Notes: a model not told the origin generated them from the letters alone. A stretch of DNA of 64,000 nucleotides from Peptococcaceae bacterium UBA5318 (GCA_002408285.1 DHRG01000044.1:73101-137100), one strand, 5' to 3'; counted from the first letter of the stretch, positions 22,695 through 64,000 are shown. Made by a program: numbers and translations.

Positions 22695-24848
22695 TCAGGC
22701 TATCCTGATCTTATTATCATTGCAACGCGGCAGAAATATAATAAAGGATGTTCCACGACCCAATTCGCTTTCAATCTCTATCCGTCCGCGATGTTCCCTG
22801 ACAATTTGATAACAGATACTTAACCCCAAACCTGTTCCGTTATCTTTCGTGGTAAAAAACGGAGTTCCTACCCGGATTATATCTTCCTCCGACATGCCTT
22901 TGCCATTATCTGAGATTTTTACATAAACCTCATCGGAAACGGAACTATATCCGGTACTGATTGATAACTCCGGTTTTTCCAAATCACTCATAGCCTCCAT
23001 AGCGTTTTGCACAATATTTAAGATCACTTGTTTGATTTGTTCGGCATCGACCCAAACTATCTTATCTTCTTCATGCAATGTTATGGTGAGATTAATGTTT
23101 TTGACATAAGAATTTGTTTCGATCATCATATGTAACGAACGAATGATCTCATTAATCGGAACCTTTTCTAAAACAGGGATACGGGGTTTGGCAAACTTTA
23201 AGAAATCTGTTACCACCTTGTTCAGACGGTCTGTTTCTTTATTGATTAGGTGGGCGCATTCGTTGATCTTATTATCATGGCAAATGTAAGTGATGATCTG
23301 GCTGAATCCTTTGATAGCAGTCAAGGGATTCCTGATTTCATGAACAATGCCCGTAGCCATCTGTCCCAAGACCACCAGCTTTTCGTTTTGTTGAAATCTT
23401 TGCTGTTCTTTTTTCATGAGGGTTACGTCTGTCCCGACGATTATGGAGCCGATCACATCCCCGTCGATATTGGTGATGGATGTTTTTTGCACCAGCAATT
23501 CTTTTTCACAGCCGCTGGAAGACGTAAAAGACGCTTGAAAAACGCTGCCCGCATTTGCGCCGATTAGACACTTATAGTCTTCCTCCGGCGTATTCATATT
23601 GATTAATTTTTCAAAGTCCTCCATATTTTCGCCGATAATATCCCGCGCGTCCCTCTCAATAAAATCGGTGCAAGCCTCATTGCATAAAAGGACTTTATTG
23701 TTCTTATCAAACAGGAGCAGAGGATTGTGGATGGAGTTAACAATGGTCTGGGTTTGAAACTGCATATAATCCAATGCCTGCACCTCTTGCGCTTCATCAA
23801 AAATGCATATGGAATCGCCATTTGCCAATCGGTAAGCGTCAATGGAAACCTTGACGCTATTCCCCCAGTTGTTCTTGAAATTGCATAAATGATTCTTAAT
23901 AACCATGTGTTCCTTACTTAATTTTCGAATGATATGCTGCGCTTCGTTTTCGTATATTTTTTTGAGTATCTCCTGATCGTTTAGTCCCACTAATTCTTTA
24001 TCCTCGTAACCAAATAAACTTTGGGCTTTTTTATTGACAAAGAACATTTTGTAATCCGCACCATATATAGACAGGGCTACCGGAAGATTATTCAAAATCT
24101 CGTTCATATCCCTGTTAAACCGTTCCATTTTTTCATACGGATAAACAACAGTGCTGACAAAAATACCCTTAAACAAAAAATAGTAATAAATGATCCGCAG
24201 AATATGCGCCTGTATATTGAATAGGCCATTTGCCGTTTGGGATAATACAAAACTGAAATTGGAAATAGCGGAAATCACTAAAGCGATCAAGATATAGCAA
24301 TACGTCACCTTATCCCGTTGCTGTAATTTGTTCTTAATATTATAGCTGCTAAGGATTGTCCCCAGCAGGATCAAAAAAATAAAAGTGAAACCAGCCGGTA
24401 TCATGTTATTATTATAAAAATAGGAGGATATCAAGTTGGGATGGAGAGCGATTAAACCGGCGCTGCCGAAAGCAAAAAATATTGAAAGCATCAGGGCAGG
24501 CCATTTATTCATGTTAATATTAAATTGAGTTGTAATAATTAGGAAAACAGTTGCCTCCATTAATCTTACCAAAACAATAAAGTTTGTTTCTGATAACATA
24601 TGGAATAAATTATATATCGCGATAATTAAAAATATAGGCCCCAAAATCTGTCCAATATCGGGTTTTTGTTCATAAGTATACCACATCACCACAAAGATCA
24701 TGAGTGCTATGAAGATACAGCAATACTCGAAAAGGATATGAACGGTATAATAATACTGCACCCAGACAGTTTGCTGTACAAGAAATGAAATTAAAATTCC
24801 TCCCAGTACAGCCAGCAAAACAGTAGAATAAATTCTTTTGTTAACCAT
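22695..24848 (-). CDS. Orphan sensor histidine kinase (MASE3-like membrane domain, two PAS, HisKA, HATPase_c)
   Basis: About 230-aa polytopic N-terminus, PAS-like segments, H-box GIVHEIRNPLTAIKGF, and N/G boxes (NAMEAM, DNGKGM, GTGLGL). No response regulator gene is adjacent. Confidence 0.85.
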   Translation of the reverse strand: MVNKRIYSTVLLAVLGGILISFLVQQTVWVQYYYTVHILFEYCCIFIALMIFVVMWYTYEQKPDIGQILGPIFLIIAIYNLFHMLSETNFIVLVRLMEATVFLIITTQFNINMNKWPALMLSIFFAFGSAGLIALHPNLISSYFYNNNMIPAGFTFIFLILLGTILSSYNIKNKLQQRDKVTYCYILIALVISAISNFSFVLSQTANGLFNIQAHILRIIYYYFLFKGIFVSTVVYPYEKMERFNRDMNEILNNLPVALSIYGADYKMFFVNKKAQSLFGYEDKELVGLNDQEILKKIYENEAQHIIRKLSKEHMVIKNHLCNFKNNWGNSVKVSIDAYRLANGDSICIFDEAQEVQALDYMQFQTQTIVNSIHNPLLLFDKNNKVLLCNEACTDFIERDARDIIGENMEDFEKLINMNTPEEDYKCLIGANAGSVFQASFTSSSGCEKELLVQKTSITNIDGDVIGSIIVGTDVTLMKKEQQRFQQNEKLVVLGQMATGIVHEIRNPLTAIKGFSQIITYICHDNKINECAHLINKETDRLNKVVTDFLKFAKPRIPVLEKVPINEIIRSLHMMIETNSYVKNINLTITLHEEDKIVWVDAEQIKQVILNIVQNAMEAMSDLEKPELSISTGYSSVSDEVYVKISDNGKGMSEEDIIRVGTPFFTTKDNGTGLGLSICYQIVREHRGRIEIESELGRGTSFIIFLPRCNDNKIRIA

Positions 24849-24972
24849 AAAGCATACCCCCCTGGCAGGTTCTCCCTTTCATAATGTAGCATAATCATTT
24901 TACATAATTCCCGTATTTTGTGGCGAAAAATGTTTGCTGTAAAAATAATTCTGCAGCGAACGTTTTAGCTGA

Positions 24973-27551: not shown

Positions 27552-29687
27552 TTAAATCCCCATTTCATCCAGCTTTTGCAGTTCATAGCGTTTGATGATA
27601 TCCATCAGCTTCAGCGGGTATTTGGAATCGGTGGCATATCCGGCTCTTTTCAAAGCCCAGGCTCCTTGAGTACTGTCGTGCATGACGTTTCTGAAAGGTT
27701 CATACCTTGCGGCAGTCAGCAAGAGGCGCTTATGGTCTGTCCAGCTCTCAGTCACACTGCGGTAGGCCCGAAACTCAGCATCAATGCGGAAAGTAGCGCC
27801 GTTATATTCTTCCCAGGTATTGGAGGTCACCGAACCGTTTGTTCCGCTTCCCTTTATGCCAAAGAGGTTATTGGACATCTTACCTGTATATTTATCTACC
27901 GGAACGCTTTGTCCCCAGCCTGTTTCCAGAATGGCCTGCGCTGTCTGCAGCGCCGCGGACATGCCTGTTGTCTGCCAGGATTGGCTTGCTAAACCGGAGG
28001 CCAGGTCTAAAAACAGATCCTTCTCTACGACAGGCTTGGCCGGATAGATTTTACCGAGATAAACTCGGAAAGATATTTTTTCACTGGCAGTTTTTGTTCC
28101 CGCAGCGGAAATTCCTTCCGCCTGGATGACCCATCCTCCTTCGTCGCCTTGCGCCGGCGTCCAGGTGTATTCGGCCTGAGGGTCTAGCCCTTGGGCGATC
28201 ACTTTTTTAGCCCCCGTTTGGGGATTGATCAAGAAGTATTGAATACTTTGCAAATCAACATTGCTGGTGACTTTCAGCTTAACCGGACCGGTCACAACCT
28301 GTTTCGGTCCTATCCCTTCCAGGATCAGCCTGGGAACGCCCGTCAGCATAACGCTCACGCTGTCACTGGTATAAGCGACGCCTCTGGTATCCTTAACCCT
28401 GACAAGCAATTCTTTTGCTCCTGTCCGCTCCGGACCGGGAAACCACTTGTAGTTTGCGTACCCGACAACTGCAAGGACTTCCTCGCTGCCTGTCTGGGGA
28501 TCTTTTAATATATATTCGGTCTGGCTCACCTGGAAGTTGCGGGATACCCATAAAGTGACAGGCTTTTCTATCGTACCGCCGGCTGTAACGCCTTTCAGCT
28601 CCAGTTTCCGCGTCACGTCGACCTTGCCGGTGATTTCTTGACTGGGATAGGCCTGTCCATTTTTATCATAAGCGGTTATTTTGAAAGAAACATTCCCGTT
28701 GTCCTCTATCAGCGGCGTCCATTGGTATACTCCCTGGGGATCGGCTTCGTCTGTCACAAATACTTGATTCTTGTCTTGACCGGCAATTTCATATTTCACA
28801 TATGAAGCGTTGAAATTGACGCTTGCCGCTAAGGAAACGCTGTCGGTTATTACTTGTCCCGGCACGACGCCGCCCAACGACACCTGGGGAACCACCGCCA
28901 ATTGAACGGAGATAGCGTCACCGGCTAGAAATCTTCCCGCCTGGTCATAAACGGCGGCCACAAGGACCCGTTGTCCCTTTTCTTCAACATTCGGCAACCA
29001 ACGGTATGTGCCGGTTATCGCGTTTCCCCTGGCAATAACCACACCGAGTCCTGTTTCGGGGCTCAGCAGGAGATATTTTATTTCGGCAGCGCCGGCAGGC
29101 GGGGTTCCCGGAAAGGAAACCTGCAGATTCGTAACCCCTGTAACCGCCTGTCCGGATTGTACGGATGATATTTTCATATCAAAAAAAGGAGTCATATTGG
29201 CCGTTTGGGAGGAATCCACATTAACGGTTCTGCCGGCGTCGTCCCAGTTCACCAAAACACCTAAAGCGTTGCTGACTAAACGAAGGGGTACGAAAGTACG
29301 ATCGCTCATAATTTGCGGCGGTACATCGCATACATTAAAAACTTGCTCTCCTGTCCGATACTCCACCAGATGGCTGTCGATCCTCAAAAGTACTGAGCGG
29401 CCGCCTTTTTGAATATGTACGGTCCTATCTTTTTCATTCCATTCCACCAGCGCTCCTAATTGTTCGGAGATCAAACGCACCGGCACTAATGTCCGGCCGT
29501 TTTGAATCACCGGCGCCGGTGTAGTCTTAATATTTTGACCATCCACCACCAGCTTTATATCATTAGCCGCAAACCCCTGAGGAACACTCCCTAACATAAA
29601 AACAAGCGCCAGGGCCAGCACGGCCGCCAGCTTACGGTTCAATCCCCGAAACCTTGCCTGCATTTTATCCACACCCCTTTTGTTCAA
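27552..29687 (-). CDS. Cell-wall hydrolase: copper-amine-oxidase-N wall-binding domain, four Ig-like repeats, C-terminal GH73 N-acetylglucosaminidase
   Basis: Signal peptide, then a CuAO-N repeat pair (VPVRLISEQLGALVEWN, VPLRLVSNALGVLVNWD). Four modules of about 93 aa follow. C-terminal glucosaminidase motif (AQAILETGWGQS ... NNLFGIKG ... YATD). Confidence 0.75.
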   Translation of the reverse strand: MNKRGVDKMQARFRGLNRKLAAVLALALVFMLGSVPQGFAANDIKLVVDGQNIKTTPAPVIQNGRTLVPVRLISEQLGALVEWNEKDRTVHIQKGGRSVLLRIDSHLVEYRTGEQVFNVCDVPPQIMSDRTFVPLRLVSNALGVLVNWDDAGRTVNVDSSQTANMTPFFDMKISSVQSGQAVTGVTNLQVSFPGTPPAGAAEIKYLLLSPETGLGVVIARGNAITGTYRWLPNVEEKGQRVLVAAVYDQAGRFLAGDAISVQLAVVPQVSLGGVVPGQVITDSVSLAASVNFNASYVKYEIAGQDKNQVFVTDEADPQGVYQWTPLIEDNGNVSFKITAYDKNGQAYPSQEITGKVDVTRKLELKGVTAGGTIEKPVTLWVSRNFQVSQTEYILKDPQTGSEEVLAVVGYANYKWFPGPERTGAKELLVRVKDTRGVAYTSDSVSVMLTGVPRLILEGIGPKQVVTGPVKLKVTSNVDLQSIQYFLINPQTGAKKVIAQGLDPQAEYTWTPAQGDEGGWVIQAEGISAAGTKTASEKISFRVYLGKIYPAKPVVEKDLFLDLASGLASQSWQTTGMSAALQTAQAILETGWGQSVPVDKYTGKMSNNLFGIKGSGTNGSVTSNTWEEYNGATFRIDAEFRAYRSVTESWTDHKRLLLTAARYEPFRNVMHDSTQGAWALKRAGYATDSKYPLKLMDIIKRYELQKLDEMGI

Positions 29688-45476: not shown

Positions 45477-46991
45477 TCACTCCCGATTCCAAGGAAGTAG
45501 ACTTTCAACATCCGCACCATTCGGGGCTCCGGTGAAAACTTTTGTCAGGTACGCGAACGGCACAAGTCCATTTTCCTTGGCGGAAACGATCAGGCTGTAA
45601 TAGACCGCACTGGCCCTCGCGCCGTTCGGCGTATTGGAAAAAAGCCAATTCTTTCGCCCCATCACAAAGGGACGGATGGAGTTTTCCGCACGGTTATTGC
45701 TGATTTCCAACCTGCCATCCAGCAAATAGGCTTTCAGATATTTGCGTTGGCTTTGGGAGTAATAGACTGCCTTTCCCAGCAAAGACTTTGGCAGCGCATG
45801 AAGTGAATCCGCCCACGCGAAGAATTCGTCCATCAGCGGCCTGCTTAGCCGTTCCCGCTCTTTGTGACGTTCTTCAGAGGACAGTAAAGCGAACTGTTTC
45901 TCCAAATGAAACAGTTTATCACAATAAGCGACTCCTTTGGCGGCGTCGGAGGTGTCCCGTTTATCTTTCGGCAGTGTTTGCAGCATTTCGTCGAATTTCC
46001 GGCGCAGATGCGCCCAGCAGCCGACAACGGCTATCCGATCGGGCAGCTTGTGGTAGCCGTCATAGCCGTCCGCATGGAGAAAACCTGTGAAGTCCTTTAA
46101 AAATACTTCCGGGTGGGTGTGCTTTCGGTCTCGTTGGTAGTCATACAGCACTATCTGGCGCTGTGCCTCGCCGCTTGTGCGGTAGAGCCACATGTAGCTC
46201 TTGCTCTGGGCGGGCTTGCCGTCCTCACGCAGCACCTGAAGCGTGGTTTCATCCGCGTGAAGGACTTGCTGCCGGCATAATCGCCTTTTCATCTCTTGGT
46301 ATATCGGCTCCAGCCAATCCGCACAGGCTTTGATGAGCCAGTTGGACATGGTCTGGCGGGAAAGCAAAATGCCGTTTAGCGCCCATTCCTGCTCCTGGCG
46401 GTACAGCGGGCTGCCCATCACAAATTTCTGCGCGGCGATGTGTGCAACCGCTTCCGGCGAAGCAAACCCGCCCTTAATAACGGGCTCGGGCATATCCGCC
46501 TTGACAATCGGCACACGCTCGGAGGTTTCCTCACAGTGGCGGCAAGCGTAGACGTGCCGCACATGGCGTATAATTACGGCCTTGGCCGGAATAATTTTCA
46601 GTTCCTCGCGGGTATCCTCACCCATTTTGTGCAGACAAGAGCCGCAATCAGGACAGACACGTTTTTCTGCCGGCAGTTCGTGCATAATGATCTCGACAGG
46701 CAAATCCTCCGGTAGTTTGTCGGTGGTCAGACGGGTTTTCTTACGGTAATGCGCCTTGACTTCGGTGATTTCCGGCTCCGGCGCGGTCAACTCCGCGGAC
46801 TGCTCCGCCTCGTTGAACAGGTAGAGCTGATAAAGATTGGTTTGTTCGCTAGAGGCGCCGAATTGTTTATGCTTGGCCAGGCGGAACTGTTCCATAAGCC
46901 ACTGAACCTGATGCCGCAGCTCATCGTTTTCCGCCTTTAACGCTTCATTGGTTTTGAGTAAATTTTCAACCGAAATCTCTTGTGTTTCCAT
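45477..46991 (-). CDS. tnpC: IS66-family transposase TnpC
   Basis: 504 aa with an N-terminal leucine zipper, zinc-finger cysteines (CPDCGSC ... CRHCE) and the DDE region (LHADETTLQVL). Confidence 0.9.
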   Translation of the reverse strand: METQEISVENLLKTNEALKAENDELRHQVQWLMEQFRLAKHKQFGASSEQTNLYQLYLFNEAEQSAELTAPEPEITEVKAHYRKKTRLTTDKLPEDLPVEIIMHELPAEKRVCPDCGSCLHKMGEDTREELKIIPAKAVIIRHVRHVYACRHCEETSERVPIVKADMPEPVIKGGFASPEAVAHIAAQKFVMGSPLYRQEQEWALNGILLSRQTMSNWLIKACADWLEPIYQEMKRRLCRQQVLHADETTLQVLREDGKPAQSKSYMWLYRTSGEAQRQIVLYDYQRDRKHTHPEVFLKDFTGFLHADGYDGYHKLPDRIAVVGCWAHLRRKFDEMLQTLPKDKRDTSDAAKGVAYCDKLFHLEKQFALLSSEERHKERERLSRPLMDEFFAWADSLHALPKSLLGKAVYYSQSQRKYLKAYLLDGRLEISNNRAENSIRPFVMGRKNWLFSNTPNGARASAVYYSLIVSAKENGLVPFAYLTKVFTGAPNGADVESLLPWNRE

Positions 46992-55560: not shown

Positions 55561-55881
55561 TTAACAGACAATATTGTACCCTGTAAGCAACCTTCTTGTC
55601 AAGACACGGTCGGTGGGGTCAATGTATTTGCCTGCCTGGTTGTCGGTTATGGAGAATGTAAATCCATCCGCGGTGGTTACGGTTAGTTTGTCCCCCTGCC
55701 CCGGTGTATAGGTCAGTATTACGCTGGTATAGTAGGGGTCTTTGGCGGCTTCGGTATTTGCCCCCGGCTCATGTTCGCTATAAGGTAGGAAATTAGCTTC
55801 TTCAGGCGAGGGTTCCATGCAAGAAAACGCGGGGGCCCCCATCCCCGCCTGGGGTGGAACCCTCGCTTTCTTCAGTCGCAA
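55561..55881 (-). other. Open frame of doubtful coding value, flanking and entering the IS3 end (possible decayed gene remnant)
   Basis: Its N-terminal codons lie inside the IS3 terminal repeat, so the ORF as drawn cannot be a native gene. There is no RBS and I recognise no family. Confidence 0.15.
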
Positions 55882-56873
55882 ATTTCTTTGAACAATGGCT
55901 CAAAATCGCCGGAAGGGCAAATATCTTCACCCATGTAAGATTTGGCAGATTCAGGAGGAAAAGCGTGAAAGTGGGATTTGCTTGGCGTAACCAAGCCACT
56001 GATTCTTGCTTTGAAAGAAATCAAATTACACAAAATATTCCGCAGACCCATATACCAGAACACAGCCTTCTTGGCCTCATCCCGTGTTCTGAAATGAAAA
56101 TCGTTCAGGTACTCCTGCTTCAGCTTCCCCCAGAAGCTCTCCATCGGCGCGTTATCCCAACAATTCCCTTTACGACTCATGGAACAGATGAAGCCGTACT
56201 CGCGGAGTAGTTCCTGGTATTCCTTAGAGCAGTACTGGCTCCCACGGTCAGAATGCAACAGCACGCCTTTGGGGTTCCTGCGCCGCAGGCGAGCCTGCTT
56301 TAGGCAATCCACGACGAGGCCCTTCGTCATTCTTTCACCCATGGACCATCCTGCGACTTCACGGCCGCAGAGGTCTAAGATACCGGCTAGGTACAGCCAG
56401 CCCTCGTCTGTCGGGATATATGTTATATCGCTTACCCACTTCTTGTTCGGCCTATCTGCGGTGAAGTCCCGGTTCAATATGTTTTCGGCCACCGGAAGGT
56501 CATGTTTGGAGTTCGTCGTCGCCTTGTATTTCTTGACCGTCTTCGATTTCCATTTGTTCTCCCGCATGATCTTGGCCACGGCCTTCGTGTTGACCGGCTT
56601 AGCCTCTGTCGAGAGCTTCGCTGCGATTTTTTTCGCTCCCGATATCTGCTTGTTGCTGAAGAACTCTTCCTTTACCTGTGTTATCAGTTCGCGCCGTCGC
56701 CGGCTCCGTTTGCTTTCAGGGCGGTTATCCCATGCGTAATACCCTGGTCTTGACACGTCCAGTATCTCGCACAGCTTTGCAACCCTAAACCTCTTGTCCT
56801 CTCCTACGGTGGCCTTGATGAACCCGTACTTCTCTACTTTTGGTGCTTTGCAAAGTAGGCCGCCGCTTTTTTT
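55872..56873 (-). CDS. IS3-family transposase OrfB (DDE integrase), expressed by -1 frameshift from orfA
   Basis: The track ORF 55872-56756 carries the rve-type core (SDITYI ... HSDRGSQY ... NAPMESFW). The same frame stays open upstream to the A7 slippery run at 56867-56873, reading SGGLLCKAPKVEKYGFIKATVGEDKRFRVAKLCEILDVSRPGYYAW. Confidence 0.85.
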   Translation of the reverse strand, partial: KKSGGLLCKAPKVEKYGFIKATVGEDKRFRVAKLCEILDVSRPGYYAWDNRPESKRSRRRRELITQVKEEFFSNKQISGAKKIAAKLSTEAKPVNTKAVAKIMRENKWKSKTVKKYKATTNSKHDLPVAENILNRDFTADRPNKKWVSDITYIPTDEGWLYLAGILDLCGREVAGWSMGERMTKGLVVDCLKQARLRRRNPKGVLLHSDRGSQYCSKEYQELLREYGFICSMSRKGNCWDNAPMESFWGKLKQEYLNDFHFRTRDEAKKAVFWYMGLRNILCNLISFKARISGLVTPSKSHFHAFPPESAKSYMGEDICPSGDFEPLFKEICD

Positions 56874-57125
56874 AGGATCTCGTTCTCCTCACGGAGATCC
56901 TTGTTCTCACGCCGCAGCCGTGCCATCTCCTCGTTCTCCGGGAGTACGCGGCCCCCCGCCGCTTCCCACGAACGGCTTCTCGGTGTTCTTCCGGTAGCGG
57001 GACGACCACCTGTACAGCGTGTTTTCGTGTATGCCCAGTTCTGTGCTTAATGCGGAGACCTTCTCGCCGTCATTAACGATCCGTTTGCATACTTCTTGCT
57101 TGAATGCCGTGTCGAATTGCTTCAT
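56834..57125 (-). pseudogene. IS3-family OrfA (HTH plus leucine zipper) interrupted by a 1-nt frameshift in a G6 homopolymer
   Basis: The N-terminal frame (MKQFDTAFKQ...FVGSGGG) stops at 56907. The expected continuation RVLPENEEMARLRRENKDLREENEILKKAAAYFAKHQK* is in the +1 frame. The switch point is the C6 run at 56952-56957 (plus strand). Confidence 0.7.
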
Positions 57126-57196: not shown

Positions 57197-57339
57197 ATTT
57201 GTTGTCTCCTTACTCTCGCCGCCATTCTTTTCATAACCTAGGCTGTGGTCTAGTTCAGCTTCTAAGAGTTCTTGTCACGGGAAAAGAGTGGTTTCCTTTT
57301 TCCTTCCTTCTTTGCCATTTGTCCAACCTGCCTTTCCAT
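57197..57339 (-). pseudogene. Decayed N-terminal remnant of an IS256/Mutator-family transposase, cut by the IS3 element
   Basis: Hand translation gives MERQVGQMAKKEGKRKPLFSRDKNS*EAELDHSLGYEKNGGESKETTN. The AELDxxLGYEK segment matches my recollection of the IS256-family N-terminal motif (LEAELDEHLGYEK). There is an in-frame stop and abrupt truncation at the IS3 end. Confidence 0.4.
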
Positions 57340-57402
57340 TTCATTTTATTTCGGAAAGGACAGAAGCACAATTTATTTTACACACTCAATAAAAAATTAT
57401 TA

Positions 57403-57990
57403 TTATCGCTGATTTAAATACTTTCTTATTTTTGTTTCAAATATATATTCTAAATCACGAGTTGCTACTCTCCCATTTTCTTCAACACTAACATTTAGCA
57501 CAACCTTAATTTGACTCTTATCAGTTAACTCCATATCATAATCATTTATTTCATCTATTAATATAATCTCACTTGTTTGTACTTCGTTACTTTCATCTTT
57601 ATTAAATTCTAATTCTATACTCAAGTTTCCTTTAGTTATTTTATTAAACTTAACATTCTTAACCCCTTCAACTCTTACATGATTGATAGCAACCTTTTGA
57701 TTATCTGCTCGCTTATAAGCTGCCAACCTTAGAGAATAATTATAATATTTATCTTCATATGTTTTAAAAGGATTTTGTCTTGTATACGGTATCAGTAAAA
57801 CCCCATTAATTTGATACTGTTCTAATTTAGGGTCTGTAAAACTATACCCCTCTTCTACATGTACCTTTTCCGTATCTTTATGAATCAAGTCAGTAATCTC
57901 AGAAAAGCCTCGAGATGTCAAAATAGTTAGTGCAATTAAAATAAGTATCACCACTAATACAACAATAATAATGATTTTTATTAAACGCAT
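57403..57990 (-). CDS. N-terminally membrane-anchored protein, candidate immunity protein for the RHS C-terminal toxin
   Basis: ATG 57990 is preceded by GGAGG. One hydrophobic helix (LIKIIIIVVLVVILILIALTILT) is followed by a soluble domain of about 165 aa. It starts 22 nt after the RHS stop. It is as AT-rich as the toxin-domain DNA. I recognise no family. Confidence 0.6.
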   Translation of the reverse strand: MRLIKIIIIVVLVVILILIALTILTSRGFSEITDLIHKDTEKVHVEEGYSFTDPKLEQYQINGVLLIPYTRQNPFKTYEDKYYNYSLRLAAYKRADNQKVAINHVRVEGVKNVKFNKITKGNLSIELEFNKDESNEVQTSEIILIDEINDYDMELTDKSQIKVVLNVSVEENGRVATRDLEYIFETKIRKYLNQR

Positions 57991-58011
57991 AACTGTAACC
58001 TCCAACATTCT

Positions 58012-61000
58012 TTATTTATCTTGATTTCTTTCATTCTTTGAACCTGTAAGATAATACGGCAACATATCTGTAAAAAAGTGCCCTACACCTTTTCCTGCAA
58101 ATTCTCCCCAACCTATAACATTTAATTTATTCTCTGGCAGTTTTGCTGGAGTTACATAGTTATATGTTGCTTTATAACTAGGATCTGTAACAGGTTGTAA
58201 TGTATCTCCATCAAAAACAGCTTCTCTTCCATTAGGATTAACAAATTTTAACTCAGGTTCTCCCACCCCATTGTCATGATAAATAGACATACTTTTATCT
58301 AATAGAGTCCATCCTGAATCCCTTTTCATCACTTCTGAATAGCTTGGATGAGGTCCATTTAATGCGTCCCTCTTTTCAAACTGAAATTCAGTTACATTCT
58401 TATAAATATCATTTGCAATATTTATTACTGTATCTTTTGCTTTATCAAACCAATTTTTGTTTGTTTCTGTTGTTTGTGCTACCCCACTATTCCCCGTCCC
58501 CTGGTTATAGTTGTACTGGTATAGGCTGCCTGCCGTCAAGGTACTGCTCAGATCAGTTACTTTACGTGTATCTACTATCGGCTCAGCAGGTTTAGTCACT
58601 GTAGTGGTTTTAGTACTCGTATAACTGGGCTGGGTTGCATTCGTAATGGGGGGAACCGTGGGGCTGGCTGCGCTTGGCACATATGTTGTAGCGGTTGATT
58701 TGATATCGCTGGTACTCTTCGTGGTGGTGTCAACGGTCTGCAGAATCTGTGTCACCACATGCAGGTCTGTGATACCACCCATGTATTTCGTACCAATATC
58801 ATACAGCCTCTGGTCTACTACGTCCTTCCAGGCTCCTGTCTGGGAGATATTCATCCGGGCGGCTTCTAACGCATAGTCGATGTAGTGTCCCGTGGGATCA
58901 TAGTATTTGATCGGGTTATTGTGGCAGTATGTGTAGAGGTTGAGGCTTAGGGGGTCGTTGGGATCGCCCCGGTAGGTGTCTTCGCTGAGGAAGCGGGCGG
59001 TTACGGGGTCGTACCAGCGGCTTTGCAGAAAGTAGGTTTGGGTTTCTTGGTCGTGTTGGTAGCCTGCGTAGGTGAAGGGGTTGTTGGTGTTGCCGGTGGA
59101 TTCGAGGATGTTGCCGAATGGGTCGTAGTAGTAGGTGGCTTGGATGCCGCCTGCGGAGTCGATCAGGGCTGTGACGTCGCCGTGCCCGTTATACATGTAG
59201 TAGAGGGTTATGCCGTCCACTGTTCTTGAGATGAGGCTGGTGCCTTGGACGTTGCGGGCGGTCTGGTTGCCGGAGCCGTCCAGTTCCAGGACGATTTTGT
59301 TTCCGATGTAGGTGTATTGGGTGGTTTGGGTGTCGATTTGTTTAGCGACCCTGAGGCCGTCGCCGTTGTAGGTGTTGGTGACGGTGAGGCCCTCCGGGGT
59401 AACGGCGGTGATCATCCGGTTGAGTTCATCATAGGTGCATTCGGAAATACCCGGATATTTTAGGGTTCCGGTGCTTTCTGTTTCGCTTAGGCGGTTTCCT
59501 GCCGCGTCGAAGGTGTAGGCTGTGGTTTTGCCGCTGGGCTCGGTCACTGTTTCCAGACGGTTGAGGTCGTCGTAAGTGTAGGTTGTGATGCCTTTGGCGT
59601 CGGCTTTGGAGATCAGGTTATGGGCCGCGTCAAAGGTGTAGGTATAGGAGTCGATGACGGTCTGGTCGGCTTTTTTATTGACGAGGGTATGGAGCATACC
59701 GTCGTCGTAATAGGTGTATTCTTCGGTGAAGCCGAAGGGATAGAGCACTTGATGCTTGGCTCCATTGTCATAGTAGGTGTAGGTGGTTGTCTGCCCGTCG
59801 GCAATGACTTGCGCCATTCTTCCGGCCTGGTCGAAGACCTGGGTGGTGGTGTTGCCTTTGGGATCAGTAGCGGTTTCCGCCACTTGGCCCGCCGGTAAGT
59901 TTGCGGTGATGTCATAGAGGAAGGTGAGGGTTCCGGCTCCGGGTACGGTCTTGGTCTTGGTTCGGTTCAGTTGGTCGTAGGTTCGGGTGGTGGTGCCCGT
60001 GCCGTCGGTCATGGTGAGTTGATTGCCGTTGTTGTCGTAGGTATAGGTGATGGTGAGGGACCCGGCGGACTCTGAGAGCATCCGGCTGTGCGCATCATAG
60101 GCGTAGGCGGTGATTTGCCCCTTGCGGTCTGTTTTGGTCAGGAGGTTGCCCAGTCCGTCGTAAGTGTAGCTCTCGGTCTTGGCCGCTTCATAAGTATAGC
60201 TGCCCGGCGCTCCGGTCCTGCCGCCGTGGTCGATCTTCCTGCTGAGTTTATTGGCGGCATTGTACTCAAAGGTGGTGACATTATTCTTACCGTCGGTCTG
60301 GGTGAGCATGTTGCCGTTAAGGTCATAAGTATAAGCGGTGGTTTCGTTTAAGGCATTTACTACAGAGCTAAGGCGGTCAAACTCGTCATAGCTGAAGGTG
60401 GTGACCTTGCCCCGTCCGTCTGTGCTGGAGCTTATTTTGCCCGCGTTGTTATAGGTCTGACTTTTGGTATGATTCAGCGGGTCGGTGGTGGAAATGAGCC
60501 GGCTGTTCTTGTCATAAACGTACTGTGTCAGTTTGTTTAAAGCGTCATAGGATTTAATCTGAACGCTGTTATTGTTGTATTCCAGTTTTTCGATGCTTTT
60601 GTTTAGAGGGTCTTTCTTTTCGATCAGCCTGTTTAACGGGTCGTAAATACTGGTATATGTGTTGCCCCGCCAATCTGTGCAGGTGGTCTGGTTGCCGTTT
60701 TTGTCATAGCCAAAGGTTGTGGTCTGGTCATGGGGCACACCGTTAAGATCGGTAACTGTTATCTTGCTGCCGGTTATTTTGTTTACTTCATTGTAGGTAT
60801 TCTCCGTGGTGACATTGTTGCCGTCCGTCAGGAAGCGCTGATTCCCGGCTTTGTCATATCGGACGGAAGTAGTGATGCTCTGGGTTGCGTCGGACTTCTG
60901 CCGGGTATGGGACAGTTCCCGCCCCTGGTTGTCATAGGTATAAAGGTCCACCGGTCCGGCGGAGTTTACTTTTTTCAGCAGGTTGCCCAGCACATCGTAT

Positions 61001-64000
61001 TGATACGTGATATGGCTTGCCGGGATAGTGGCGTCACCCGGATAGATCGCCTTTCTTGTTTTTCCGAAGGCGTTGACTTCATAGACGGCGGTGTTCCCGT
61101 TCCCATCTGTCTGGGTCATAAGATGCCCGGCCAAGTCATAGGTATTTGCCTGGGTCGTCTGGCCATTGACCTGTATGGTGAGGATATTCCCGGCGTCGTC
61201 ATAGGTATAGGCTTTAACAATGCCGTTGGCGTCGGTTTCCGCGATTTTACGGCCTGCCCCGTCATAATCATATTTTACTGTAAAGGGGAGCGCACGGTCC
61301 CTGCTCACCGGATCAAGAATAGTGATGAGCCGGTTGGACAAATCATAGCCATATCCGGTGCTGTTGTTCAGGGCGTCCGCTTCACTGCTTTTGTTGCCGT
61401 TGGCGTCATAGTTGAAGGTTTTGGCAGCAAAGCCGACCCACTGGCCCGTGAGGGGATCAAGATAAGTATATCCTTTGGTTTTCACCCTGTCCATAAGGTC
61501 ATAGGTATATACCGTCCGGCTCATCTCGGTCAAATTCTTGGCCGGATCGTAGCTATTGGGCGCCACCTCTGCGATCAGGCGGCCGGCCCGGTCATAATAG
61601 TAGGCTGTGGTATACCCTTTGGCATCAATGGTTTTAATCAATTGTTCGCGTCCGTCATAGATATTGGTCGTGGTATGGTTATTGGCGTCCGTCCGGGTAA
61701 GGATTTTGCCCGCCCAGTCATAGGTAACGCCGGTGTCAATGGTAACCGGATTGTTGTTTTCGTCTGCTCCGGGCATACTGGTTCCCGTCTGCCGGTTCAG
61801 ATTATCATAAGTATAGGTTACGACTGTAGTATCGGGCCTCGTCATAGTTTGGATATTCCCGTTCTTATCATAGGTATAACTGGTAGTCAGAAGGGTATCC
61901 TGGTCACTGGCGAAGTCATATCCGGCCAGGTCCCCTTCTCTGATATGGAGCTTTTCTTCCACAGGCTTGCCGAAGTAATTGTTGACAAATTCTATAGTAT
62001 TTTTTTCGGCAGCGTCGGTATACACATCTTTTTTGCTTAAAAATCCGTCGTCGTCATAGTAATATTCTGTCCTCCCGCCCGCGCTGTCTGTCTGGATTCT
62101 TAGCCTGTTATCATTGGTGTACTGATTTGTAACCGTCAGGAGATTTTCCGAAGCGGGGACCGCATACAAGGCTGCCGCTGTCTTACCGGCCTTTTCCTCC
62201 AGTATATTGCCCGCTTTGTCATAAACCTTGGCTTTATAGCTGTATAGGGAGCCGTCGGCAGCGGTCGGGATCCACTGCCCGGTATTTCTGTTCAGCCCGT
62301 CGTAACGGAAATAAGTGGCGCTTCCCCGTCCATCGGTCGAAGAATTGATTGTCCCGTTGAGGTTATAATTTACAGTGCTGAATGTTCCGTCCGGATTGAT
62401 CTGTTTGATGAGCCGTCCTTTATAATCATAGGTATATTCTGTTACCGCCCTTTCCGTATCGTTCAGATAACGGGTCACGGTCTTGGTGGTCTTGCCGTCC
62501 GGCAGGATCAAATAGCTGTAACTCGTCAGCAGGACGGAAGCCGCCCCGGCGCTTTCTTTAAATTTAAGTGTAGCCAGCCGGTCCAGAGCGTCATAACTAT
62601 ACTCATAGACGGCCCCGTTGGGCTTGGTTTCGGTCTGCACATTGCCGTACAAATCATAGGTGTAGGTGATCGCCTTGTCTTCCGGGTCGGCGACCGTATG
62701 AACCTTCCCGCTGGGATAGTATGTGTAGCGGTAGCCGTGATTGCCGTTGTAAACATGGTTGACCAGGTTATCTTGTGCGGGATCATAAAGGTTGGCGGCT
62801 ACCACCTTGGATTTTCTTCCCATATTATCATAAGTGGTTCGCGTTACTTCCCCGCCCTGCAGGGTTACCTTCTCCACGTTACCGTTATTATCATAGACGG
62901 TGCTTGTGGTGTACTGCTTCGGTGAAACCGCGCCGGTCCGCCAGCCGATAGTGTTGTAGCTGTAACTAGTGGTCTTGTTTTCGGCGTTCAAAACAGTCTG
63001 GATATTCCCATAAGGATCATAGGTATAAGTGGCGATGTGCCCGTTGGGATCGGTTTCGGATTTCAGCAGTCCTTTAGCGCTGCAGCCCATCTGCTGCGCT
63101 TCCGCGTCTGTATAGTAAGTGTAGGCGGTAACGGTAAAGGGGGCTTCGTCACAGCCATCGGTGTATTGATCCGTGCCGTTTAAGGGCTGCGCCTTTTTCA
63201 GAAGCCTCAGTTTATTGCTGTCGTAAATATAAAAGATATATTTGCCGTCTTCGTCACGCCCACTGATTTTATTGTTCTTTTCATCGTAAGTAAACTCTTG
63301 ATAGCTGGAATCGGGATTATAGATCCTGGTGATATTACCCTGCCCATCCCGCTCATATTCTGTCCGGTTGCCATTCCGGTCGGTGACGGATTCCGCTTCC
63401 CCGTACTTATTGACTCCGTTTGTATCCAGCGTATAAATAGTTGCGCTTCTGCGGCCGTCGGGCTCCTGGACCTGGATCGGGTAAAGCATACTGTCATACC
63501 AGGTAGCCTTTTCCCGGCCGTTAAGATCGGTAATGGTCACCTTGCGGTACTCGTCATCATACATATAAGTCTGAGTATTGCCATAAGCGTCGGTAATCCT
63601 GGCAATTTTCGGCAACGTGCCCGATGTAAAATCATACACAACCGTTTCCAGCACATTATTATCATGATCCTTGATCGTGGTCAAATAGCCTTGAGTGTTA
63701 TAGCTGTAGCTCATTGATTTGCCCTGGGGATCAACGGCCCTGGTCAACTGGTTGTTTGTATACTCATAGCGGACAGTTCGGCCAATAGGATCGGTAATTG
63801 TATCAATCAAACCCTGAGCGTTGTAAATAATAGTGATCTGCCTTCCCACCTGGTCGGTGATAGACGTCACTTTCCCGGTGGCGGCCGCGACGGCCAGGGT
63901 AATGGCGTTGCCGTTGCGGTCCTTCATCCATGTCAGATAACCGTTGCTATCAAATCCATAAGTGTACTGGTCCTTGGTCGTCAGGACATGTGTGTTGTCG
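58012..64000 (-). CDS. RHS / YD-repeat polymorphic toxin (C-terminal 1990+ aa; N-terminus lies beyond the window end)
   Basis: Dozens of YD repeats (YxYDxxGNxxxxxD). The frame stays open from 63927 to 64000 (...YGFDSNGYLTWMKDRNGNA). The RHS core-end motif is NPIKYYDPTGH at 58885-58917, followed by a 290-aa variable C-terminal region. Confidence 0.9.
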   Translation of the reverse strand, partial: DNTHVLTTKDQYTYGFDSNGYLTWMKDRNGNAITLAVAAATGKVTSITDQVGRQITIIYNAQGLIDTITDPIGRTVRYEYTNNQLTRAVDPQGKSMSYSYNTQGYLTTIKDHDNNVLETVVYDFTSGTLPKIARITDAYGNTQTYMYDDEYRKVTITDLNGREKATWYDSMLYPIQVQEPDGRRSATIYTLDTNGVNKYGEAESVTDRNGNRTEYERDGQGNITRIYNPDSSYQEFTYDEKNNKISGRDEDGKYIFYIYDSNKLRLLKKAQPLNGTDQYTDGCDEAPFTVTAYTYYTDAEAQQMGCSAKGLLKSETDPNGHIATYTYDPYGNIQTVLNAENKTTSYSYNTIGWRTGAVSPKQYTTSTVYDNNGNVEKVTLQGGEVTRTTYDNMGRKSKVVAANLYDPAQDNLVNHVYNGNHGYRYTYYPSGKVHTVADPEDKAITYTYDLYGNVQTETKPNGAVYEYSYDALDRLATLKFKESAGAASVLLTSYSYLILPDGKTTKTVTRYLNDTERAVTEYTYDYKGRLIKQINPDGTFSTVNYNLNGTINSSTDGRGSATYFRYDGLNRNTGQWIPTAADGSLYSYKAKVYDKAGNILEEKAGKTAAALYAVPASENLLTVTNQYTNDNRLRIQTDSAGGRTEYYYDDDGFLSKKDVYTDAAEKNTIEFVNNYFGKPVEEKLHIREGDLAGYDFASDQDTLLTTSYTYDKNGNIQTMTRPDTTVVTYTYDNLNRQTGTSMPGADENNNPVTIDTGVTYDWAGKILTRTDANNHTTTNIYDGREQLIKTIDAKGYTTAYYYDRAGRLIAEVAPNSYDPAKNLTEMSRTVYTYDLMDRVKTKGYTYLDPLTGQWVGFAAKTFNYDANGNKSSEADALNNSTGYGYDLSNRLITILDPVSRDRALPFTVKYDYDGAGRKIAETDANGIVKAYTYDDAGNILTIQVNGQTTQANTYDLAGHLMTQTDGNGNTAVYEVNAFGKTRKAIYPGDATIPASHITYQYDVLGNLLKKVNSAGPVDLYTYDNQGRELSHTRQKSDATQSITTSVRYDKAGNQRFLTDGNNVTTENTYNEVNKITGSKITVTDLNGVPHDQTTTFGYDKNGNQTTCTDWRGNTYTSIYDPLNRLIEKKDPLNKSIEKLEYNNNSVQIKSYDALNKLTQYVYDKNSRLISTTDPLNHTKSQTYNNAGKISSSTDGRGKVTTFSYDEFDRLSSVVNALNETTAYTYDLNGNMLTQTDGKNNVTTFEYNAANKLSRKIDHGGRTGAPGSYTYEAAKTESYTYDGLGNLLTKTDRKGQITAYAYDAHSRMLSESAGSLTITYTYDNNGNQLTMTDGTGTTTRTYDQLNRTKTKTVPGAGTLTFLYDITANLPAGQVAETATDPKGNTTTQVFDQAGRMAQVIADGQTTTYTYYDNGAKHQVLYPFGFTEEYTYYDDGMLHTLVNKKADQTVIDSYTYTFDAAHNLISKADAKGITTYTYDDLNRLETVTEPSGKTTAYTFDAAGNRLSETESTGTLKYPGISECTYDELNRMITAVTPEGLTVTNTYNGDGLRVAKQIDTQTTQYTYIGNKIVLELDGSGNQTARNVQGTSLISRTVDGITLYYMYNGHGDVTALIDSAGGIQATYYYDPFGNILESTGNTNNPFTYAGYQHDQETQTYFLQSRWYDPVTARFLSEDTYRGDPNDPLSLNLYTYCHNNPIKYYDPTGHYIDYALEAARMNISQTGAWKDVVDQRLYDIGTKYMGGITDLHVVTQILQTVDTTTKSTSDIKSTATTYVPSAASPTVPPITNATQPSYTSTKTTTVTKPAEPIVDTRKVTDLSSTLTAGSLYQYNYNQGTGNSGVAQTTETNKNWFDKAKDTVINIANDIYKNVTEFQFEKRDALNGPHPSYSEVMKRDSGWTLLDKSMSIYHDNGVGEPELKFVNPNGREAVFDGDTLQPVTDPSYKATYNYVTPAKLPENKLNVIGWGEFAGKGVGHFFTDMLPYYLTGSKNERNQDK

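Follow-up and report, generated by a model that had tools for sequence, protein, structure and literature searches.

A candidate toxin-immunity pair from a large, previously unnamed family at the tip of an RHS protein of a Peptococcaceae bacterium

The window analysed here, a stretch of 64,000 nucleotides (nt) from Peptococcaceae bacterium UBA5318 (GCA_002408285.1, DHRG01000044.1:73101-137100), ends in an incomplete RHS gene, read from the minus strand and followed by a small gene whose product is a candidate immunity protein for the RHS tip. Positions are counted from the first letter of the window. The RHS open reading frame (ORF) stops at 58012-58014 and remains open to the window edge, with no stop in frame above 63927 and at least 1995 amino acids (aa) inside the window; it contains 30 RHS_repeat stretches (Pfam, E 2.8e-113), and YD_repeat_2x was also matched. 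The NCBIfam model TIGR03696 terminates precisely at the H of the core-end motif YYDPTGH, at base 58885. This agrees with a preliminary description of the locus, made by a model from the sequence, which had counted 290 aa after the motif (58015-58884). The ATG of the next gene lies 21 nt past the toxin stop. The features of the locus, with guanine plus cytosine content (G+C) and its value at third codon positions (GC3) where relevant, are as follows.

58885-64000, minus strand: RHS/YD-repeat shell, partial, with its N-terminus past the window edge; RHS_repeat matches
58885-59127, minus strand: Rhs_assc_core plug, TIGR03696 at full length (1-76/76), ending in YYDPTGH
58465-58884, minus strand: post-core linker of 140 aa, host-like composition (G+C 49%, GC3 0.53)
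58015-58464, minus strand: C-terminal toxin domain of about 150 aa, conserved core 58015-58401, delimited from homologues, profile and AlphaFold model
57999-58003, minus strand: ribosome-binding site GGAGG, 8 nt before the ATG of the immunity candidate at 57990, read from the sequence
57403-57990, minus strand: immunity candidate of 195 aa, N-terminal signal anchor 57907-57990, all-beta body 57406-57906
57260-58500: AT-rich block (G+C 31.3%), putative exchanged cassette with the toxin domain and the immunity gene

The 290-aa tail of the RHS protein is made of three parts: a 51-aa segment, a Ser/Thr/Pro-rich spacer and the AT-rich toxin domain of ~150 aa. The first (58732-58884, residues 1-51 after DPTGH) is short and helical-looking, has a host-like composition, and gave no relatives. 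The spacer (58465-58731, residues ~52-140 after DPTGH) shares 49% identity, across 83 aa, with the linker found in an RHS protein from Clostridiaceae (L029), the flanks of which are unrelated. The post-core linker had no Pfam match, and the tail as a whole had none in Pfam, NCBIfam or PDB sequences. The preliminary description had been unable to place the last ~150 aa of the tail in any toxin domain, and this was borne out by these searches and by Foldseek against PDB and BFVD; profile searches gave no match to a characterised toxin family, and the domain is still unassigned.

The toxin domain is not confined to the window and forms part of a large family. Among 5.8 billion proteins searched, 56 homologues with 40-65% identity were recovered, and a profile run against 1.84 billion cluster representatives (clusters formed at 50% identity) matched 882 clusters at E<=1e-3, 322 at E<=1e-10 and 112 at E<=1e-30. 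Orphan fragments of 81-97 aa also exist. The domain is marked by the motifs (H/Q)FExRxxxN, SIYHDNGxG, PELKF, DGREAVFDGD, TYNY and GHxxxDxxPY, and an alignment of 72 diverse members shows ten positions without any variation (R, N, H, K, G, E, N, H, D and P). The first R and N sit in (H)FExRxxxN, H in HDN, K in PExK, G and E in DGRE, the second N in TYNY, and the last H, D and P in GHxxxDxxPY; several other residues are more than 90% conserved, and the window copy retains all ten invariants. No cysteine is conserved among the 57 or among the 72 aligned members. Taken singly, 57, 72 and 38 family members gave nothing for the domain in Pfam or NCBIfam even at E<=10, while searches of PDB sequences with single toxin sequences and with three profiles returned only the marginal lectin matches discussed below. 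A full-text literature search with the motifs DGREAVF, YHDNG and GREAVFDGD found no paper, and none of the PLSDB plasmids matched in tblastn. The domain constitutes a real, strongly conserved, large family without a detectable relative of known structure or function.

The gene that follows the toxin domain belongs to a family of its own. The preliminary description had taken it for the immunity gene and had suggested looking for the same tip with the same neighbour in other genomes. This pairing recurs: of the first 27 loci inspected, 22 carry a gene of the same family directly behind the toxin, as judged with an iterated hidden Markov model (HMM) built from mature sequences only, and homologues follow the toxin in later loci from candidate division FCPU426, Spirochaetaceae, Marinobacter and Billgrantia. 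The HMM joins 33 proteins from Bacillus, from Clostridia and from gammaproteobacterial loci linked with a type VI secretion system (T6SS), with E values of 1e-26 to 1e-50. BLASTP did not link a T6SS-associated immunity protein to that of the window, whereas the iterated HMM without signal peptides links both. The partners in Treponema and Kiritimatiellota are beyond the reach of this HMM, yet they too are lipoproteins or membrane-anchored. On these sequence grounds, we are strongly confident that the toxin domain and its downstream gene represent a genuine toxin-immunity pair.

As the preliminary description had also predicted, the immunity candidate is a single-pass, N-terminally anchored protein without a recognisable family. 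It has one strongly hydrophobic N-terminal segment (mean Kyte-Doolittle hydropathy over 19 aa, 3.84) and none in the other 167 aa, and it matches nothing in Pfam, NCBIfam or PDB sequences. Its homologues, which measure 170-196 aa in the loci first examined, also begin with MRLIK. Almost all of them carry a lipobox Cys (...LSGC|Q, ...LSAC|K, ...ISGC|E, ...LCSC|R), and only three proteins, that of the window and two relatives, have a signal anchor instead. The window copy reads ...LTILTSRG|FSEITDLIHKD where close relatives read ...LTSC|(R)FSEITDLIHKD, with the lipobox Cys absent. From this difference we predict that the window protein descends from a lipoprotein, lost its lipobox Cys and is held by its uncleaved signal peptide. 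The AlphaFold model (predicted local distance difference test score, pLDDT, 85), built from a 14-sequence alignment, is an eight-stranded beta-sandwich for which Foldseek returned only generic Ig-like proteins (ApaG, the C-domain of PDIP38, the luminal domain of TMEM106B, NEAT) at E>=4e-3 and a TM score of ~0.4. In Neobacillus vireti (L014 6436-7595) two tandem immunity lipoprotein paralogues follow the toxin gene, and in this locus and one other (L009) a conserved protein of ~250 aa comes after the immunity gene or genes.

Genome scans and cluster representatives place the toxin domain in at least eight phyla. Carriers include Clostridia (Anaerovorax odorimutans, many metagenome-assembled genomes (MAGs) of Eubacteriales, Faecalimonas, Acetatifactor, Schaedlerella), Bacilli (Bacillus, Neobacillus, Sutcliffiella) and Gammaproteobacteria (Shewanella, Vreelandella/Halomonas, Billgrantia, Marinobacter, Microbulbifer, Saccharospirillum), together with Rhodospirillales, Treponema and other Spirochaetaceae, Verrucomicrobiales, Kiritimatiellota, Nitrospirota and candidate division FCPU426. 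The scan with a degenerate DNA pattern yielded 33 stretches; 4 of the 18 newly inspected were false positives, two of them aldehyde-dehydrogenase-like. The N-terminal partners of the domain are equally diverse: RHS (8 of 72 members), PAAR, DUF4280, a VgrG fragment, eCIS_core and MafB. Fusions to Tox-PAAR-like domains have a DUF2169 adaptor gene upstream, and members that look high in G+C and are fused to extracellular contractile injection system (eCIS) modules occur among the cluster representatives. Other members are joined to wall- or carbohydrate-directed modules, namely PG_binding_1 (3), LysM (2) and carbohydrate-binding modules. Some members carry Sec signal peptides, those of Treponema have double-glycine leaders of the bacteriocin type, and some are plain secreted proteins without a translocation module. 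The toxins of Bacillus, Neobacillus and Sutcliffiella have a helical N-terminal domain of ~250 aa that matches nothing in Pfam, LXG included, and we accordingly propose no link to the type VII secretion system. Such varied N-terminal partners are the signature of a polymorphic-toxin tip.

Two Treponema MAGs (L024 872-3957 and L026 1554-6874) carry arrays of toxins with a common double-glycine leader and differing C-terminal tips. The first toxin of L026 has LysM after the leader and those of L024 have a shared spacer there, and each toxin of the arrays is then followed by its own small membrane protein or lipoprotein gene. In these spirochaetes the arrangement resembles a polymorphic toxin system of the bacteriocin kind.

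The composition of the locus changes sharply within the tail. The block 57260-58500, at 31.3% G+C, lies ~4 standard deviations (SD) below the window mean (47.0%, SD 4.0%, in 1.2-kb windows) and is the lowest in the window. In 100-nt bins, G+C falls from 0.47 at 58500-58599 to 0.31 at 58400-58499 and then stays between 0.26 and 0.38 to about 57300. The RHS shell has 51% G+C and the toxin domain about 33%, and GC3 is 0.65 in the RHS core, 0.53 in the linker, 0.18 in the toxin domain and 0.195 in the immunity gene. The hand counts of G+C in the preliminary description, 17/60 and 34/60 for two lines of the sequence, are exact. It had proposed a swapped AT-rich cassette, with the drop in G+C beginning near 58480; the exchange stands, on the comparisons given next, and the break in composition is not at the RHS core end but ~140 aa beyond it, at the start of the toxin domain.

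Comparison with other RHS proteins bears this out. Against a complete RHS protein of Anaerovorax odorimutans, the last 134 aa are 66% identical and the cores only about 30%. The closest RHS cores, those of Desulfosporosinus, Candidatus Formimonas and a Peptococcaceae MAG, show 65-76% identity up to DPxGH and continue into tips unrelated to that of the window; their closeness puts the source organism near Peptococcaceae and Desulfitobacteriales, a position with which the SpoIVA, V-type ATPase and ylxM-ffh genes of the window agree. Most of 49 related cores match only to query residue ~211-213, which is the core end. About 20 tips translated from related cores are unrelated to that of the window, with the exception of the linker shared with L029. 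In an Oscillospiraceae MAG (L113/L114 4323-6305) the toxin-immunity pair is present as an orphan module whose toxin ORF opens with a short RHS-end fragment, and it sits behind a 2026-aa RHS gene that differs in its tip and has an immunity gene of its own. Two further elements lie downstream of the cassette in the window.

55872-57125, minus strand: IS3-family remnant, with OrfA (HTH_Tnp_1, 56907-57125) and OrfB (rve, 55872-56756) from Pfam
55603-55752, minus strand: 50-codon remnant of another RHS post-core domain, between the insertion sequence (IS) remnant and ylxM-ffh

The IS3 remnant adjoins the cassette; its OrfA has 72 aa, and its OrfB, of 294 aa, ends in an odd C-terminus. A search for terminal inverted repeats found none, and the element is for this reason probably decayed. 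It may have brought the cassette in, or it may mark a recombination scar. The 50-codon remnant shares 72% identity (50 aa, E 4e-25) with the segment directly after DPTGH in the RHS protein of Clostridiaceae BRH_c20a (L029), and the tip of Peptococcaceae UBA5356 (L030) has a visibly similar opening segment. It looks like the stranded stump of a previous tip displaced by the AT-rich cassette. These comparisons support the view that the present tip is an exchanged cassette, and with its composition break, IS remnant and stranded fragment of an earlier tip the locus is a clear case of RHS tip replacement.

In common with the WapA and RHS toxins described so far, the locus has RHS repeats and a TIGR03696 plug that closes with DPxGH, followed by a variable tip and an adjacent immunity gene; the orphan module of a relative and the displaced tip remnant of the window add to the likeness. 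It differs from them in that the tip is not one of the described nucleases, deaminases or ADP-ribosyltransferases (ARTs), in that the immunity protein is predicted to be extracytoplasmic rather than cytoplasmic, and in that the composition junction lies 140 aa after the plug. The architecture is that of a textbook RHS polymorphic toxin, and what is new is a toxin-immunity family inside a known type of system. The best explanation, and in our judgement a reasonably probable one when the reading is taken as a whole, is that the locus encodes a polymorphic RHS (WapA-like) toxin with an exchangeable tip from a large, previously unnamed toxin-domain family, that the next gene encodes its cognate immunity protein, and that the tip is an enzyme acting on the envelope from outside, as set out below.

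Where the tip acts is suggested by its partner. The preliminary description had argued from the membrane anchor of the immunity candidate that the toxin works on the envelope, and the wider family agrees with this, as the immunity proteins are lipoproteins or membrane-anchored in both Gram-positive and Gram-negative hosts. Because the inhibitor is found only outside the cytoplasm, and because some toxins are secreted without a translocation device, we consider it highly likely, judging from the sequences, that the toxin has its site of action beyond the cytoplasmic membrane. Among the RHS and WapA tips that have been characterised, most are enzymes working in the cytoplasm, and by this precedent the window tip could be a nuclease, an NADase or a similar enzyme, with the downstream protein serving another role. 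That alternative seems very improbable: export and membrane tethering of the downstream protein hold in all phyla examined, the protein co-varies with the toxin, Pfam, NCBIfam and Foldseek gave neither a signature nor a fold match of a nuclease, deaminase, ART or NADase for the toxin domain, and the members that are simple secreted proteins lack a translocation module.

In the AlphaFold2 model of the toxin domain (57-sequence alignment; pLDDT 88, predicted template modelling score 0.75), two long helices, one N-terminal and one C-terminal, flank a loop-rich core that has a single beta-hairpin. The long helices span residues 6-43 and 123-146, in the numbering of the 157-aa model (window 58015-58485) that is used here for toxin residues. 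Foldseek with this model, a check that the preliminary description had called for, found nothing in PDB (best E 2) and nothing in BFVD (best E 0.33).

These two helices dominate the model, and they could be read as amphipathic helices that insert into the membrane from outside in a toxin that disrupts membranes or forms pores. In the window copy, the C-terminal helix is rich in glycine (GWGEFAGKGVG), and an immunity protein that works at the membrane surface would suit such a toxin. The family, however, contains no segment resembling a transmembrane helix, the highest Kyte-Doolittle mean over 19 aa being 1.33 in the family and 0.48 in the window copy. Of the glycines in the would-be zipper just one is conserved, and the invariant residues of that helix are H, D and P. 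Immunity to pore-formers is usually conferred by a polytopic membrane protein, and the partner here is a soluble beta-sandwich on a tether. A glycine-zipper or pore-forming class was set aside on the hydropathy maximum and the single conserved Gly, and we judge a pore-forming action improbable.

A second alternative arises from the centre of the toxin profile (58100-58300), which gave marginal matches to beta-prism II (bulb-type) lectins, repeatedly though weakly (4oit, E 0.019; garlic lectins, E ~0.7). In the alignment, HDN, K, DGREAVF and YNYV fall on the lectin repeat; lectins of this type are defined by a three-fold repeat with the sugar-binding motif QxDxNxVxY in a beta-prism fold. In the manner of lectin-like bacteriocins, for which binding is the mode of action, the tip could be a non-catalytic binder that sequesters or blocks a molecule essential to the cell outside its cytoplasm, be it lipid II, the division machinery or a penicillin-binding protein. 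The small size of the domain and the extracytoplasmic immunity are in keeping with this, and so would be the phenotype of the PT6 toxin (see below), which fits a block of septal wall synthesis, provided that PT6 is of the same family. The lectin likeness, however, is unsupported by Pfam, where single members gave no B_lectin match even at E<=10, and by Foldseek; the model has a single hairpin and no beta-prism, and the ten invariants, rich in H, D, E, R, K and N, resemble a catalytic centre. We keep the lectin likeness as a lead and consider a pure binder unlikely.

An enzyme is the reading we prefer over a pore-former or a binder, and it is likely in our view, since R, N, H, K, E, N, H and D are invariant across the aligned sequences, since the domain has no membrane-spanning segment, and since the immunity protein is soluble on its tether and not polytopic. 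Several known enzyme classes were considered and set aside. A Tae-like amidase of the NlpC/P60 or CHAP type would need a Cys-His dyad, and the family has no conserved Cys and no Pfam match of this kind. Lysozyme-like proteins and lytic transglycosylases (Tge, pesticin) were not matched in Pfam, PDB sequences or Foldseek, and neither of the lipase motifs GxSxG and HxKxxxxD is present in the family. The S8-PTS system requires an S8 peptidase and a BetaH domain, neither of which is seen here; the immunity of ABP is described as cytoplasmic, unlike the exported partner in the window; and Salmonella Tox-Act1 was set aside as not relevant.

In the mechanism that we propose, the toxin domain (~130-150 aa) would be freed from the RHS shell and would then act on the target cell from the outer side of its cytoplasmic membrane. 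The eight invariant residues just named, contributed by the two long helices and the loop-rich core, would make up the active site of the toxin; more speculatively, from the sequence, the helix-borne HxxxD and two other histidines could form a metal site. The target would be common to all these bacteria, and peptidoglycan or a lipid-linked precursor (lipid II or undecaprenyl pyrophosphate) would answer to that. A membrane-proximal target is favoured because the immunity protein is always tethered, and the fusions to PG_binding_1 and LysM favour a wall target. That the substrate is indeed one of these, peptidoglycan or lipid II, we hold to be about as likely as not. The producer would be spared by its immunity protein, which would bind the toxin at the outer face of its own membrane, tethered by an uncleaved signal anchor in the window copy and by a lipid anchor in most relatives.

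A parallel in logic is the TelC-TipC pair of Streptococcus intermedius, in which a lipid II phosphatase toxin is countered by a membrane-anchored extracellular immunity protein, and in which TelC belongs to the Lipocone superfamily (PMC12419801). The two have in common that they are antibacterial toxins from Gram-positive bacteria, with an expected action confined to the outside of the membrane and neutralisation by a tethered surface protein (a prediction in our case), and both toxin families have also been taken up by the T6SS and other systems (PMC12419801). Kinship is another matter. The Lipocone domain is a four-helix cone with His on H2, Glu on H3, Asp on H4 and a glycine capping H4, and it includes TelC, Min-Wnt and CapCone (PMC12419801), whereas the toxin model has two long helices and one short, with His and Glu on one helix (HFExR). 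No sequence or Foldseek similarity to TelC or to other solved Lipocone structures such as Wnt or SAA was found in PDB, and the immunity protein is a larger beta-sandwich, absent from the folds listed in PMC12419801. Lipocone kinship was rejected on topology and on the missing fold match, though a very remote relationship may exist.

The gammaproteobacterial members resemble the periplasmic T6SS effectors that have periplasmic or lipoprotein immunity (Tae/Tsi amidases, Tge muramidases, Tle lipases) in their setting, in which PAAR-like, VgrG or RHS parts and a DUF2169 adaptor are followed by a lipoprotein gene. They differ from these effectors in lacking a conserved Cys, a lipase motif and a lysozyme-like fold match, and in belonging to a family that is shared with Gram-positive bacteria.

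PT6 deserves a separate comparison. In the preprint of Nachmias et al. that describes it (bioRxiv 10.1101/2021.10.19.465003), PT6 is an 85-aa orphan toxin of Moraxella canis (WP_078255899.1), elsewhere fused to DUF4157; it is toxic only in the periplasm and causes filamentation, and neither a structural neighbour nor an immunity gene is reported (bioRxiv 10.1101/2021.10.19.465003). Compared by this description only, PT6 has the same unusual phylum spread as the window family (bioRxiv 10.1101/2021.10.19.465003), and it is shorter, at 85 aa against a conserved core of ~130 aa here. Neither genome scan for the toxin domain returned a Moraxella locus. That the window family is PT6 is possible but rather doubtful on this description. 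Were the two identical, there would still be novelty in the mechanism, in the cognate immunity family and in the domain boundaries at their full extent.

The boldest form of our proposal is that the domain founds a new enzyme fold, that it hits peptidoglycan or its precursor from outside by a chemistry unseen in antibacterial effectors, and that the immunity protein represents a new class of surface inhibitor; we offer it tentatively, as somewhat less probable than its negation. Several points weigh against the mechanism proposed above. No homology or fold match points to the chemistry of the toxin, the active-site picture is drawn from sequence conservation alone, and the model has scant regular secondary structure besides the two long helices and the one hairpin. 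The window copy has Q35 (58381-58383) in place of the first His of HFExR, which is present in 41 of 44 and in 68 of 72 relatives, and N in place of the usual D of DGRE; given these substitutions, it could be attenuated or altered in activity. The cell-wall-binding fusions are supportive and not decisive, because the LysM of Treponema is part of an N-terminal delivery module that is joined to other tips too. Finally, the RHS N-terminus, and hence the export route, lies beyond base 64000 and outside the window; two long, RHS-sized members of the toxin family (P0072, 2221 aa; P0081, 2986 aa) start with signal-peptide-like sequences.

Envelope toxins have repeatedly exposed new ways of breaking cell-wall synthesis, as TelC did with lipid II, and colicin M is another example. 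The present family is promising for such a discovery, with hundreds of clusters in at least eight phyla, one immunity family across the Gram divide, and a toxin domain co-opted by RHS, T6SS, eCIS, MafB and bacteriocin-type export. Were the domain indeed an enzyme of new fold, its envelope target would be broadly vulnerable, in monoderm and diderm bacteria alike and through at least six delivery systems. Knowing the target would add an antibacterial mechanism and a toxin-inhibitor pair, and would annotate about a thousand 'hypothetical' proteins. The interest of the family lies in this wide distribution on both sides of the Gram divide, in its predicted fold, which appears novel, and in a putative envelope target that is directly testable.

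The rest of the window is an ordinary spore-former chromosome, with SpoIVA, a V-type ATPase, glycine cleavage, hydantoinase and ffh genes. The second-lowest G+C of the window (about 35%, ~23700-24900) falls inside a sensor kinase gene of MASE3-PAS-HisKA-HATPase architecture (22695-24848, minus strand). On the same strand lie a wall hydrolase gene with Cu_amine_oxidN1 and glucosaminidase domains (27552-29687) and an intact-looking IS66-family transposase gene (45477-46991).

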